Assembly: GCA_965221115.1 (NCBI GenBank)
Contig: CBDCRU010000002.1
Location: 4,700 to 68,699, forward strand
From: Alphaproteobacteria bacterium
Lineage (GTDB): Bacteria > Pseudomonadota > Alphaproteobacteria > SP197
Direction of reading: 5' to 3'
Length of the DNA: 64,000 nucleotides
Of this stretch, positions 53,977 to 58,830 are shown one piece after another. The notes under the pieces were generated by a model. That model ran no database searches and was not told the origin of the DNA. It was given only the letters and a program-made list of their open reading frames with translations. Numbering within the stretch: the first letter of the stretch is position 1; every line of letters begins with the position of its first letter. Made by a program: the position numbers and the translations under genes.

Positions 53977-55509
53977 TTACTCCAGCCAGGCGTCCTTCAG
54001 GGTCTTGAGAAACCCGGTCCGCATCGGCTTGAAGTTCTTCAGGCTGTCGCTGTGGGCCGTCAGGACCCAGCCGTTCACCACGGGAATGACGTCCATGGTC
54101 TCGAGAGAGAGTTGCTGCTGCTCGAGATAGAGCGCCTTGCGCTCCTCGACGGTGACGGCCGACTTGGCTGCCAGCATGAGATCGTCCATCTCCTGCGAAC
54201 CGCCGAGCTGCACGTTGACGGCGGATGTCGTGGCGTAGGTGTTGGTCACGAAGTCATCCGGATCCGCCAGGGGTGACAGCCAGTACATCACGGTGAGATC
54301 GAAGTTGGAGGGACCCCAGACCTCGTCCCAGTAGCGCGGCACCTCCATGGTGTCGATCGTCGCACTGAAGCCGATCTGTGCCAGGTTGGCCTGGATGATT
54401 GGCGCCATCGACATCATCGGAGGCCATGACGACACCATGGTGAGCGAGAGCGGCGTTCCTTCCGCAATCCCGGCCTCGGCCATCAGCGCCTTCGCCTTTT
54501 CAATGTCGCCTTGGGGTGCGAACTCGGAGAGTCCTGCATAGCCCCAGTTCCACTCGGGAATCACCCCGCCGACGATGGCTGTCGCCTGGCCGTAGAACGC
54601 ACCCTGCACGATCGCCGCCCGGTTGAGGGCGTGGGCAATGGCCCGCCGCACGAGAGGATTGCCCAAAGGCTCACGGGTATGGTTCGGCACCATCCAGAAG
54701 TAGCGGGATCCCTCGATCGCCGCATCGACCATGTTGTCCTGAGAGACAATGGCGCTCCAGTCCTTGGGCGGCACCTCGTTGGAGAAGTGAATCTCGCCGG
54801 ACTTCAAGCCGTTGGAAAGCGCCGTCGGGTCCGAGATGATCCGGTAGACCATGCCATCGAAATAGGGCCGTCCTTCCTCGTAGTAGTCCGCGTTCTTCTC
54901 GAAGACGATCGAATCGCGGGGCGTGTAGGAAACGAACTTGAAGGGTCCGCTGCCGACCGGATGGGCATTGAGATCCCAGTCCGATTCCACGAGATCCTTC
55001 GGCACGATCGATGAACCAGGGAAGGCCATGTAGATCTCGAACGGTCCCGTCACCCGGTTGAGCCGGAACTCGACCGTCAGGTCGTCCACCGCCACGACTT
55101 CCGCAATGGTCTCGATCTGTGAACTGTAGGCATAGCCCGAGTCGGGGGCGAGGATGCGCTCGAACGAGAAGACGACATCCTCGGCGGTCAGCGCCTCGCC
55201 GTTGTGGAACGTCAGGCCCTCGCGCAGGGTGAACGTCCACGACAGTCCATCATCCGCCTGGGACCAGGATTCGGCGATCCCGGCATAGGGCTGGGCATTC
55301 TCGTCCAGGTTGAGCAGGGTCGAATAGACCTGCTCGATCACCACGTGCGACATGCCGCTCGGGCCGCGGGCCGGATCGAATCCTCCCGGGTCGGCCGAGA
55401 ACGCCGCCACCAACGTGCCCCCGTAGGTTCCTTCCGCTGCCGCGGGACATATGAGGCCCGCCGTGGCAACGGCCGCCGCACAGCGCAGCATCCATTTTCT
55501 GACTTTCAT
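53977..55509 (-). CDS. ABC transporter substrate-binding protein, family 5 (peptide/nickel type)
   Basis: Signal peptide MKVRKWMLRCAAAVATAGLICPAAA. ATG 55509 is preceded by GAGGAGGA. Confidence 0.9.
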   Translation of the reverse strand: MKVRKWMLRCAAAVATAGLICPAAAEGTYGGTLVAAFSADPGGFDPARGPSGMSHVVIEQVYSTLLNLDENAQPYAGIAESWSQADDGLSWTFTLREGLTFHNGEALTAEDVVFSFERILAPDSGYAYSSQIETIAEVVAVDDLTVEFRLNRVTGPFEIYMAFPGSSIVPKDLVESDWDLNAHPVGSGPFKFVSYTPRDSIVFEKNADYYEEGRPYFDGMVYRIISDPTALSNGLKSGEIHFSNEVPPKDWSAIVSQDNMVDAAIEGSRYFWMVPNHTREPLGNPLVRRAIAHALNRAAIVQGAFYGQATAIVGGVIPEWNWGYAGLSEFAPQGDIEKAKALMAEAGIAEGTPLSLTMVSSWPPMMSMAPIIQANLAQIGFSATIDTMEVPRYWDEVWGPSNFDLTVMYWLSPLADPDDFVTNTYATTSAVNVQLGGSQEMDDLMLAAKSAVTVEERKALYLEQQQLSLETMDVIPVVNGWVLTAHSDSLKNFKPMRTGFLKTLKDAWLE

Positions 55510-56070
55510 GGTTCCGGTATCCTCCTCAATGAATGGAGCGGCTCTCCATGTGGCCGCTTCCAGAATGCCGTGGATGTTAGCCCGCGCCACCCGGGCGCAC
55601 AAACGTCATCACCCCTGCATCGGAGATCGCGCGGGCGAATGCCTTGCATCAGTGAACGCGAGATGCAGGTTCCCGGCAACTGTGCCAAGGTGGTGACATG
55701 TGCGGCCGCTTCACACAGCGTTTCAGCTTGCGCGATCTCCACGAGTTGCTCGACCTCATCGGATCACCGGCGAACCTGGCGCCGCGCTACAACGTGGCGC
55801 CGGGACAGCAGGTCGCGACCGTGCGCGCCGAAGATGGCGGGCGGCGACTCGCCATGACGCGCTGGGGCCTGATCCCCTCGTGGGCGAAGGAACCCAACAT
55901 CGGCTACAGGTTGATCAACGCCCGCTCGGAAACGGTGCGGACGAAACCGTCATTCCGCTCGGCCTGGCGGTCGCGCCGCTGCCTGATCCCGGCCGACGGG
56001 TTCTACGAGTGGACGGGGGAGCGCAAGGCGAGGCAGCCCTAGCTGATCACGATGAAGGAGGATGGCCTTG

Positions 56071-56076
56071 TATGAC
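56071..56076 (+). promoter_or_regulatory. -10-like hexamer TATGAC at the IS left end (half of a junction promoter)
   Basis: Only pairs with a -35 (TTGCCA, 57886..57891) when the IS ends are abutted; the spacer is then 17 nt. Confidence 0.4.
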
Positions 56077-56082
56077 CAGGTT

Positions 56083-56365
56083 TCATTCCTGTGTTTATGA
56101 AGTTATCCACAGCAGTTGAGGTCGGGAGATTGTGGACAACCGCGGCTGTGGGAGAGCCATCCGGTCTATGGTTCCAGGGAGATTCCGCTCCCCCGCGCGA
56201 GCACGCACAGGGGAGCGGGGTGTGGGGATCTCACAATCCCCGCGGAGGTCGGTCGGACCGTTTTGGCCTTGGCTTTGTAGAGCCGCAAGAGAGCTTGGTC
56301 GGCCGACCTTCCTTGGCGTCCCTCGCGTCCTGAATGGATGCCTGGGCTTGGACCGTATCATCACA
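56083..56365 (+). ncRNA. Candidate IS110 bridge RNA in the left non-coding end; extent guessed
   Basis: 315-nt non-coding leader with hairpins at 56185..56218 (9 bp) and 56224..56241 (6 bp), CCGCGG at 56140 and 56240, GCCATCC at 56156 and ATGGATG at 56334 (see findings). Confidence 0.4.
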
Positions 56366-56384
56366 AGGCGAGGAGCAAGGGACG

Positions 56385-57332
56385 ATGGACAAGGTAGTGG
56401 CAGGGATCGATGTCAGCAAGGCCAGTCTGGACATCTATGCGGCGGGCCAGGAGCGTCGTTTTGCGAACGACGCCACGAGCTGGCGGGAGCTGGGCGCGTG
56501 GCTTCGGGGGCTCGAGGTGAGCCGGGTGGTGATGGAGGCGACGGGCCGCTACCACCGCAGGGTTCACCAGTGTCTTCATGACCGGGGCTTCGAGGTCGTC
56601 CTGGTCAACCCGTTGCGGGCCCGGCGCTTCGCCGAGGCGCTGGGCCATCTGGCGAAGACCGACCGCGTCGACGCCGTGATGCTGGCCAGGCTCGGGACGG
56701 TGCTGGGGGACCTTGAGCCCGTGGCCCCTCAGGATGCCTTCCTCAACCGCCTGGAGGATCTCCTGGTGTCGCGTGCCGCGCATGTCGATGCGCGAACCAT
56801 GCTGAGGCAGATGGCGGGTGAGGTGGACGGCGAGGGCGAGACCGTCACACGAGCCTCGGTGGCCGGTCTCGATGATCAGATCGCCGTGTTGGATGCGGCG
56901 ATCGAAGCCGTGATCACCCGTGATCCCGACCAGGCCCTGCGGTACAGCATCCTGACCTCGATCCCCGGCGTCGGTCCGGTGACCGCCGCCGCCCTTCTTT
57001 GCTGGATGCCCGAACTCGGCGGTCTCGACCGTCGCCAGGCGGCATCGTTGATCGGGGTGGCGCCGGTTGCCGACGACAGCGGAGAGCATCACGGCGCCCG
57101 GCACATCCGCGGCGGGCGCCGAAGGCCACGCGATCTCCTGTTCATGGCCGCAACAGCGGCGGCACGCTTCAACGCGGACCTCAGAATCGTGTTCGAACGC
57201 CTCAAGGCCGCCGGCAAGGCCCACAAGGTCGCGATCGTCGCCGTGATGCGCAAGCTCATCGTGCTGGCGAACACCCTGCTGCGGGAACAGCGCTGCTGGT
57301 TGCCTGAAGCGCCAGCACGGTCACCGGCGTGA
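56385..57332 (+). CDS. IS110-family transposase/recombinase (DEDD RuvC-like plus Tnp domain)
   Basis: GIDVSK, VVMEATGRYH, AKTDRVDA and LTSIPGVGPVTAA. ATG 56385 follows GAGGAG. Confidence 0.9.
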   Translation: MDKVVAGIDVSKASLDIYAAGQERRFANDATSWRELGAWLRGLEVSRVVMEATGRYHRRVHQCLHDRGFEVVLVNPLRARRFAEALGHLAKTDRVDAVMLARLGTVLGDLEPVAPQDAFLNRLEDLLVSRAAHVDARTMLRQMAGEVDGEGETVTRASVAGLDDQIAVLDAAIEAVITRDPDQALRYSILTSIPGVGPVTAAALLCWMPELGGLDRRQAASLIGVAPVADDSGEHHGARHIRGGRRRPRDLLFMAATAAARFNADLRIVFERLKAAGKAHKVAIVAVMRKLIVLANTLLREQRCWLPEAPARSPA

Positions 57333-57360
57333 TCAGCGACTGAACGAAGGAGACCCCCTC

Positions 57361-57651
57361 ATGGCCCTCACGCCTGCCGAGAAGCAGCGCCGGTACCGGG
57401 AACGCCGCAAGGCCGGCATCCCTCCCGTCCACACCCGAAAGCCCCGCGACCGCCGCTCCCGCGCGCAGCGCTGGCGCGATGCCGTGGCCGAGCTCGGTGC
57501 GTTGCAGGAGCATTATCGAGACTGTCTCGACAGGCTTCCGGACTCCCTCCGCGACACGGCCTACGGAGAACGCCTGCAGATCATCGTCGAGGCCGAGATC
57601 GAAGCCCTCGAGGAGATCGAGCTGCCGTGCGGCTACGGACGGGACACATGA
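57361..57651 (+). CDS. Hypothetical 96-aa protein inside the IS right arm
   Basis: Basic N-terminus LTPAEKQRRYRERRKAG and acidic helical C-part ending LPCGYGRDT. AAGGAG lies 7 nt upstream of the ATG. Confidence 0.55.
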   Translation: MALTPAEKQRRYRERRKAGIPPVHTRKPRDRRSRAQRWRDAVAELGALQEHYRDCLDRLPDSLRDTAYGERLQIIVEAEIEALEEIELPCGYGRDT

Positions 57652-57672
57652 CACCTGGAACCCCATTGAACG

Positions 57673-57737
57673 CGGTCACGTTACCATCCCTGAAGGCGCT
57701 GGACGGCCCTGTGGCCACGCCCAACGGTCACGTTACC
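57673..57737. repeat. Two copies of CGGTCACGTTACC, 52 nt apart, in the IS right arm
   Basis: Perfect 13-mers at 57673..57685 and 57725..57737. A third partial CGGTCAC is at 57795. Confidence 0.85.
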
Positions 57738-57885
57738 GCGATCAATAGAAGACAGCCCGATCATGCTGCAGGGATCACGAACTGCATGTCTCCCCGGTCA
57801 CAGGGCACACACATTGGCAAAGTGGAACGCCAGATCGCATGTGGACAAGCACAGGAAACATCATCCTGGACACCCACAAATAACC

Positions 57886-57891
57886 TTGCCA
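57886..57891 (+). promoter_or_regulatory. -35-like hexamer TTGCCA, 13 nt from the IS right end
   Basis: See the junction-promoter finding. Confidence 0.4.
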
Positions 57892-58410
57892 GGGAACATG
57901 GATGCTCTTCTGCTTCGCCGGCCTGTGGGAGCGCTGGAGGGTGCCGGCCGGTCTGGCGCTGACAGGAGCGCTGGCCGACTTGGAGGAGGGCGACGCGCTG
58001 GAGACCTGCACCATCCTGACGACGGCAGCCAACACGGACATATCGCGGATACACCACCGCATGCCGGTGATCCTGCCGTTCGAGTCATATGAGCCATGGC
58101 TTGCGGGAGACGACATGTCTCTCGGTCCCTCTCCGCAGGACACGATGACCCTTCATCGGGTGAGTCCACTGGTGAACAAGGCCACCAACGATGATCCTCG
58201 CTGTGTCGAGCCTGTGGACTGAAAGCGGGCCCATGCACGCATTGCACCCTGATTCAGGCCGGCCACGCGTTCATCTCTGAACGACATGCCGTCCATCTCG
58301 TTCATGCAGTGTCCGGAACAAGGCGCTCATTCGGGCGCCTGGTACCGCAGATGCGCGGCCCGACATGCCGGACGACAGCATGATCATCCGTTGTGCGGGG
58401 AGGACGAGGA

Positions 58411-58830
58411 GTGAACGGCGTCGCCCTTGTGCCGGTGATCCTCGTCGCGATTGCGGCGGTCGAGGACCTGCGCCGGCAGAGGATCCCCGATCCCGTTGTC
58501 CTGGCGATCGCCGTCACCTCACCCCTCGCCGTCGTCCTTGGCGATGATCAGGATATCGCCTGGCACCTTGCCTGCGGCGGCGGCATGCTCGTCATCGGCC
58601 TTGCTCTCGCATGGTTCGGATGGCTCGGAGCCGGTGACGCGAAACTGATGGCGGCTGTTTCCTGCTGGACGGGGTTCGACGGCCTCGTCCCCTTCCTGTG
58701 CGCCACGGCACTCTGCGGCGCTCTCATCGCCCTGGCGCTCTTCCTCACCGGACGCCGGCACCGCGGCATGCCCTTCGCTCCGGCCATCGCCATCGGCACG
58801 CTCGTGGCGGTCCTTGCTCCCGGCATCTGA
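58411..58830 (+). CDS. cpaA: A24-family prepilin peptidase (CpaA-like)
   Basis: AAVEDLRRQRIPD and GAGDAKLMAA aspartyl motifs. GTG 58411 follows GGAGGA. Confidence 0.8.
   Translation: MNGVALVPVILVAIAAVEDLRRQRIPDPVVLAIAVTSPLAVVLGDDQDIAWHLACGGGMLVIGLALAWFGWLGAGDAKLMAAVSCWTGFDGLVPFLCATALCGALIALALFLTGRRHRGMPFAPAIAIGTLVAVLAPGI

Follow-up and report, generated by a model that had tools for sequence, protein, structure and literature searches.

The 64-kb window analysed here (64,000 nucleotides of contig CBDCRU010000002.1, from the alphaproteobacterial assembly GCA_965221115.1) carries an insertion sequence (IS) of the IS110 family, which occupies positions 56069..57904 and interrupts a gene for an SOS-response-associated peptidase (SRAP). 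Coordinates are those of the window, and features lie on its plus strand unless stated otherwise. The element measures 1836 bp without its cores and has a CT dinucleotide on each side; no inverted repeats pairing its termini were found when these were compared. It contains a left-end region for a bridge RNA, a bridge recombinase gene and a second open reading frame (ORF2). When its right end (RE) and left end (LE) are abutted through a single CT, a -35-like and a -10-like hexamer come to stand 17 nt apart. We consider it likely that the excised circle assembles in this way a sigma70-type junction promoter, positionally homologous to the RE-LE promoter of IS621, which would boost both the bridge RNA and the recombinase.

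The interrupted gene consists of an N-terminal SRAP fragment (55698..56068; Pfam SRAP profile positions 1-118, E 2.8e-41), which closes with the left copy of the CT core (56067-56068), and of a C-terminal fragment (57907..58222; profile positions 128-213), which follows the right copy of the core (57905..57906, placed by direct reading and by comparison of insertions). Taken separately, the two pieces score 141.9 and 73.5 bits, versus 233.8 bits for the one continuous Pfam match (1-213/214) obtained when the element and one CT (56069..57906) are deleted, which restores the SRAP frame. The corresponding empty site would read GGATGGCCTCTTCTGC. Element and SRAP gene have the same orientation, and the insertion is at the CT core; for annotation, the SRAP gene is here an IS-disrupted pseudogene. 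In addition, an in-frame TAG is found at 56040-56042 in the N-terminal fragment, 27 nt upstream of the insertion point. It is a second inactivating lesion beside the IS, as would fit pseudogene decay.

Related elements were used to fix the ends. A scan with one genome per species gave ten related loci, all in metagenome-assembled genomes of uncultured Alphaproteobacteria, plus one distant match (36%) in a Gemmatimonadetes metagenome-assembled genome. Additional relatives were taken from ENA, Logan and JGI contigs; individual relatives are referred to by L numbers. More than 12 insertions, independent of one another and located at different sites, agree in that similarity to the window begins at cCT|TGTATGACC and stops at ACATGGATG|CT. 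The right ends of the relatives terminate in AACATGGATG|CT, the flanks are mutually unrelated in every copy for which flanks are available, and a CT is found at both ends in all copies compared. Because the limits of similarity agree while the flanks differ, the element can be delimited to 56069..57904, between two copies of the CT core. The preliminary description, which had deduced the same two positions from the SRAP frame, was exact on this point, as judged from the independent insertions and from the full-length SRAP recovered after removal of the element. No second copy is present within the 64-kb window. Among 72,556 plasmids no close relative was found, only short parts of the recombinase gene showing similarity, at about 70% identity. 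A search of 200 of 222 supplementary files of Durrant et al. did not find the donor sequence.

The recombinase gene (56385..57332) encodes a protein of 315 amino acids with the Pfam domains DEDD_Tnp_IS110 and Transposase_20 (E 8.8e-22 and 1.5e-17). It also matches the NCBIfam equivalog NF033542 (transpos_IS110, 'IS110 family RNA-guided transposase') with 206.8 bits, for a cut-off of 140. The protein is 34% identical to the IS621 recombinase, and residues D11, E60, D102, D105 and S241 of the latter align with identical residues. From its sequence, 56069..57904 is an intact bridge-recombinase element of the IS110 family (IS110 subgroup), new and so far unnamed.

The two halves of the putative promoter lie at the extremities of the element. 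The -35 element, a C followed by TTGCCA (57885..57891, with TTGCCA at 57886-57891), stands 13 nt from the right end, from which it is separated by GGGAACATGGATG (57892-57904). The -10 element TATGAC (56071..56076) occupies left-end positions 3-8; it is preceded by TG (56069-56070) and overlaps the right-donor sequence. Joining RE, CT and LE yields TTGCCA-17 nt-TATGAC, with a spacer of 13+2+2 nt and 9/12 matches to TTGACA/TATAAT. The junction sequence expected from a circle is AACATGGATGCTTGTATGACC. Directly upstream of the -35, at the position of a proximal UP-element subsite, is an A-rich tract, ACAAATAAC (57876..57884), which we infer to be such a subsite. Direct reading bore out every coordinate and the spacer given in the preliminary description, and also its claim that the promoter is missing from the integrated state. 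In the integrated copy, the hexamers ACGATG, CACGAT and TCACGA stand, respectively, 16, 17 and 18 nt upstream of TATGAC, with 2/6, 0/6 and 2/6 matches to the -35 consensus, and a consensus scan of the integrated sequence found no sigma70-like site anywhere in 55600-58400. A hybrid outward promoter in the integrated state, made of the right-end -35 and of the right flank, was rejected, the hexamer at the -10 position being TCTGCT.

Could such a sequence arise by the fortuitous juxtaposition of two hexamers? The match is only 9/12, with a non-canonical -10, and TATGAC, which lacks a T at position 6, fails the stricter criterion of the scanning tool. On the other hand, when sites are counted with at least 9/12 matches, an A at -10 position 2 and a spacer of 16-18 nt, only 11 occur on both strands of the whole G+C-rich window, and about 0.0024 is expected to straddle one given oriented junction. 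Moreover, every relative has the same geometry, and so does IS621. Chance is therefore extremely improbable and, by this recurrence, effectively refuted.

The left end of the element encodes a non-coding RNA of about 300 nt (56083..56384), made up of a 5' region, two extra hairpins, a target-binding loop and a donor-binding loop. RNAalifold applied to the left ends of 12 relatives gave 83 pairs, 19 of which show compensatory changes, and the alignment of twelve left ends displays two hypervariable patches framed by conserved stems. The left target guide, TTTTGGCCT (56261..56269, core CT included), reads in the same direction as the left target flank, which is here GGATGGCCT, and the right target guide, CAAGAG (56286..56291), is the reverse complement of the right target flank. 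The left guides of L002 (GGTTCCT) and L004 (GCCGACCT) match their own left flanks perfectly. The right guide matches its own right flank at 6/6 positions in L001, L002, L018 and L136, and at 5/6 in L004, L005, L010 and L017. Overall, in 13 elements, guides and their own flanks agree at 109 of 169 positions, versus 52.8 +/- 6.8 after random re-pairing; none of 20,000 permutations reached 109. The donor guides are located further downstream. The left donor guide, ATGGATGC (56334..56341), is identical to the 7 terminal nt of the right end followed by the core C, and it does not vary in the left-end alignment. The right donor guide, TCATCACAAG (56358..56367), corresponds, apart from a bulge of one nucleotide, to the reverse complement of CT+TGTATGA. 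L117, a distant element, shows a compensatory change, with a left end starting in CGTATGA and the guide TCATCACGAG. Taken together, covariation and guide matches indicate that the left end encodes a genuine bridge RNA with an IS621-like architecture, the target-binding loop preceding the donor-binding loop.

For the window copy itself, the match between guides and flanks is imperfect (4/7 on the left, 4/6 on the right), while the insertion site of L001, a sibling that is 98.8% identical to the window element, matches the right guide perfectly. On this ground, the SRAP insertion looks like a tolerated near-cognate target. In this family, bridge RNAs have been reprogrammed naturally: there are more than 10 different target-guide pairs, each matched to its own site. 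These guides, together with the larger RNA scaffold of about 300 nt, may be of use in comparative or engineering work. In one relative, L002, the 5' part of the bridge-RNA region contains an insertion of about 59 nt (about 2228-2283). A scan of 55500-58500 against Rfam gave no family at threshold. The sX15 model (a small RNA of Xanthomonadaceae) aligned at 56231-56407 on the minus strand with 25 bits, compared with a gathering score of 55 (E 0.26), and was judged a chance match. As the match lies opposite the bridge-RNA strand, we also note that sX15 itself could derive from an IS110 left end.

The layout of the junction is maintained throughout the family. In all 15 tabulated elements, 13 nt separate a TTGnnn from the right end and left-end positions 3-8 read TATGAn, so that the spacer is always 17 nt. 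In the alignment of the last 60 nt of the right ends, the only invariant blocks are CTTG and the terminal AACATGGATG; the six bases between them vary freely. Three more lineages, with recombinases of 55-57% identity, keep the offset of the -35, which there reads TTGACG or a perfect TTGACA. In L117, the junction would be TTGACA-17-TATGAA. The A-tract upstream of the -35 is likewise found, as CACAAAAAC in relatives, AAAAAAACC in L066 and L117, and GGAAAAAAC in IS621. Finally, a 1.43-kb deletion derivative of the element keeps the -35 at the same offset, reading TTGCCG.

This conservation could in principle serve recombination only. The ends, including the CTTG at -19..-16 from the right end, would then be constrained by contacts with the recombinase or the bridge RNA, with no transcriptional role in this lineage. 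Such an explanation has clear merits: TGTATGA and ATGGATG demonstrably pair with the bridge RNA as donor sequences, position 6 of the -10 is unconstrained, and the element is known from sequence alone. However, the CTTG block is located 16-19 nt from the core and the -35 spans 14-19 nt, when the left donor guide pairs with only 7-8 nt. Because CTTG lies beyond these paired positions, from which the six freely varying bases set it apart, donor pairing does not explain its conservation. Its TTG stands at the exact distance of a -35, becomes TTGACA or TTGACG in other lineages and has an A-tract upstream, and the same block in IS621 is a functional -35. A purely recombinational role of the conserved ends is thus quite unlikely.

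Several observations nevertheless weigh against the junction promoter. First, TATGAC has only 4/6 matches and lacks the T at -7; since position 6 is C, A, T or G among relatives, this position is not under promoter-like constraint. Second, the right-donor site, which pairs with the bridge RNA, includes TATGA, so that conservation of the -10 is fully explained by recombination and is not independent evidence; the argument is carried by the -35 and by the homology with IS621. For the same reason, the earlier suggestion that the promoter independently supports the boundaries holds only in part: the boundaries are correct, but the overlap of the -10 with the right-donor site makes this weak evidence, and the comparison of insertions is far firmer. 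Third, three relatives have only 3/6 matches in the -35 (TTGCAG, TTGCAC and TTGCTC). Fourth, although little can be read from this because assemblies rarely retain rare circles, the RE-CT-LE pattern had 0 matches in JGI metagenome contigs, and none of the about 120 matches of the right-end control pattern in the same metagenomes continued into the left end. Short ENA and Logan contigs (1.3-2.0 kb) with near-identical recombinases were all linear integrated copies, none being circularly permuted. As for the -10, the consensus of Caulobacter RpoD is GCtANAWC, with a -35 consensus of TTGaCgS (PMC8144410). The terminal C of TATGAC fits that -10 consensus, and nearly all known hosts of the family are alphaproteobacterial.

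Expression could also come mainly from read-through of SRAP transcription or from a weak promoter inside the left end, the contribution of the junction being minor. In support of this view, the element is co-oriented with SRAP, linear copies of IS621 are transcribed by read-through at a low level that is needed for excision (PMC13626964), and an internal site with 8/12 matches, ATGACC-18-TATGAA (56072-56101), does exist. This internal site was rejected as the main promoter: it has no TTG and is not conserved, left-end positions 28-33 varying among relatives (CATAAA, CATAAG, CAAGAA, GATGCA) and being deleted in L004. Read-through would explain basal expression but not an invariant, correctly spaced -35 at the right end. 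In IS621, furthermore, both routes coexist and the boost comes from the junction promoter (PMC13626964). A predominance of read-through or internal transcription therefore appears very unlikely. Read-through does bear on the proposal, in the preliminary description, that the junction promoter drives the left-end RNA and the recombinase only after excision. The left end indeed encodes a bridge RNA, as that proposal requires, but 'only' is too strong, because integrated copies of IS621 are transcribed by read-through and the present element is co-oriented with SRAP.

The model that we favor, an on-off junction promoter, starts from what the sequences show, namely the geometry of the junction, the element boundaries, the pattern of conservation, the bridge RNA with its guides and a layout identical to that of IS621, and adds to it, as inferences, circle formation, promoter activity, a start site and read-through into the recombinase gene. 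Rare excision would join the right and left ends via one CT. The cTTGCCA motif, with its A-rich tract, would then be placed 17 nt upstream of TATGAC. The junction promoter would fire at about 56081-56085, 5-9 nt past the -10 (a start predicted by position from IS621), to give the bridge RNA of about 300 nt and, by read-through, the recombinase mRNA. Both components would be boosted in the circle, the form in which they are required for insertion. The recombinase-RNA complex would insert the circle at a site matching TTTTGGC-CT-CTCTTG, and integration would split the two promoter halves and switch the promoter off. The integrated copy would rely on weak read-through for rare excision, plausibly from the SRAP promoter; such basal expression is possible because the element points the same way as SRAP.

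A further level of control might operate on translation. The recombinase gene has its ribosome-binding site, GAGGAG (56370-56375), inside the basal stem of the donor-binding loop. In the predicted fold of 56320-56384, this site pairs with UCCU/CCCUC, the 5' strand of that stem. Folding of the bridge RNA might hence occlude initiation of recombinase translation on the same transcript. Close to this position, and still within the left end, an insertion of about 1.78 kb is found in L003 (725-2500), 2-3 nt ahead of the recombinase ATG; it may be a nested element.

Downstream of the recombinase gene, and outside the promoter, ORF2 (57361..57651) encodes a conserved accessory protein of 96 amino acids. 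The protein has a basic N-terminus, AEKQRRYRER. Among related elements, 12 have an intact copy of this ORF and two a frameshifted one. Its family comprises 763 clusters and is characterized by an invariant C-terminal motif of the PPxGYGRD type; family members also adjoin IS3-type (rve) transposases and large serine recombinases. No match was found in Pfam, NCBIfam or PDB sequences, and the only, weak, PHROG match is to a family of unknown function. The AlphaFold model is all-helical and confident (pLDDT 86.8), with no Foldseek match to solved structures at E <= 0.001.

Three DnaA-box-like 9-mers are also found inside the element. One, in the left end, is a perfect TTATCCACA (56103-56111). The two others, at 56131-56139 and 57840-57848, are on the minus strand and read TGTGGACAA (TTGTCCACA in the minus-strand reading). 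With at most 1 mismatch, TTATCCACA occurs 6 times in the 64-kb window, and 3 of these occurrences fall within the 1.8-kb element. Relatives conserve the 9-mers, and where these differ between lineages they do so in parallel: both minus-strand copies are a perfect TTATCCACA in L010 and TTTTCCACA in L117. They bracket the junction promoter, the right-end copy being located about 38 nt upstream of the junction -35. They may form a protein-binding site. The possibility that TTATCCACA and TGTGGACAA are the arms of a 5' stem-loop in the bridge RNA has also been considered. The arms are complementary, but the changes in L004, L010, L017 and L018 are uncompensated and a third copy is present upstream of the promoter. 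Host DnaA or ORF2 might bind the 9-mers and gate the junction promoter or the direction of recombination, a regulatory layer not described for bridge-recombinase elements; we regard this as an unlikely, speculative scenario. A literature search turned up no paper discussing DnaA boxes within IS110 elements.

Two groups of relatives show larger rearrangements. The 1.43-kb deletion derivative (L141 2186-3620, L142 to L150), present in at least 10 contigs and with a recombinase 80% identical to that of the window, is missing the greater part of both ORF2 and the right end. It retains the terminal ~60 nt, with CTTGCC at the 13-nt offset, and the retained sequence suggests what a minimal right end would be. 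L066 and L117 (reverse strand) represent a distant relative with a recombinase of 55% identity and, in L117, an apparent stop or frameshift; it adjoins a transposase-like gene of another IS. The two have a common left flank and different right flanks, which may reflect rearrangement or assembly chimerism.

Promoters assembled by the joining of IS ends are found in other families. In the DDE-family elements (IS911/IS3, IS2, IS30 and IS21), the junction of a circle or of a tandem brings together an outward-facing -35 of one end and an inward-facing -10 of the other into a strong promoter. These systems differ by their DDE transposase chemistry, their terminal inverted repeats, a junction spacer made of flanking bases and the absence of a guide RNA. 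Closer to the present element are the Pjunc promoters of IS492, from Pseudoalteromonas atlantica, and of ISEc11, of the IS1111 group, as cited in PMC11208160 and PMC13626964. According to these citations, the promoter likewise arises only when the ends of the circular intermediate are abutted and drives the transposase; the likeness is one of published descriptions rather than of compared sequences. Unlike the window element, the IS1111 group is described there as having its guide RNA in the right end.

The closest system is the RE-LE junction promoter of E. coli IS621, which drives the bridge RNA (Durrant et al. 2024, PMC11208160; Hiraizumi et al. 2024, PMC11208158; PMC13626964, 2026). Small-RNA sequencing of RE-LE plasmids showed that the non-coding RNA starts at the junction promoter, and trimming of the donor to 22 bp, which removes the -35, abolished bridge-RNA function in cis (PMC11208160). 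RNA sequencing of junction versus linear constructs confirmed transcription from the junction (PMC13626964). In the same study, integrated copies produced low levels of bridge RNA and recombinase by read-through, as required for excision; 5'-extended bridge RNAs were active, and the junction promoter, coexisting with this route, provided a boost. The statement, in the preliminary description, that junction promoters are known for circles of IS110/IS492-type elements is thus well founded: IS621 is a validated case with the same -35, spacer and -10 positions, and the Pjunc promoters of IS492 and ISEc11 are in the literature.

The two junctions can be compared position by position. The IS621 junction is AAACTTGCAG-GCCATAACAGTAT-CT-TG-TATTAT-CCCTCC-A, where the final A is the first base of the listed bridge RNA; this RNA begins at left-end position 15, 7 nt past TATTAT (supplement of Durrant et al.). 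The window element has the same layout, ACAAATAACC-TTGCCA-GGGAACATGGATG-CT-TG-TATGAC. Both have a CT core, a left end starting with TGTAT, a 17-nt spacer across the core and a -10 at left-end positions 3-8. In both, the distance to the right end is 19 nt from the start of the -35 (TTGCAG in IS621, TTGCCA here) and 13 nt from its end, and an A-tract is found upstream. Both encode a left-end bridge RNA in which the target-binding loop, with the motif CCGU-[left target guide]-UGG, precedes the donor-binding loop, and their recombinases share the same two domains and the same catalytic residues. On the other hand, the present -10 is TATGAC instead of TATTAT, and the left-end RNA, with its two extra hairpins, reaches about 300 nt compared with 177 nt in IS621. 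A second conserved ORF, a 570-bp right end and the three DnaA-box-like 9-mers are also particular to this element, whose hosts are uncultured Alphaproteobacteria. The layout is a known mechanism in a new example and brings no new principle. Its value is that of a clean natural example from uncultured Alphaproteobacteria, in which the arrangement of -35, 17-nt spacer and -10 around the CT core is the same as in IS621, although the two recombinases are only 34% identical.

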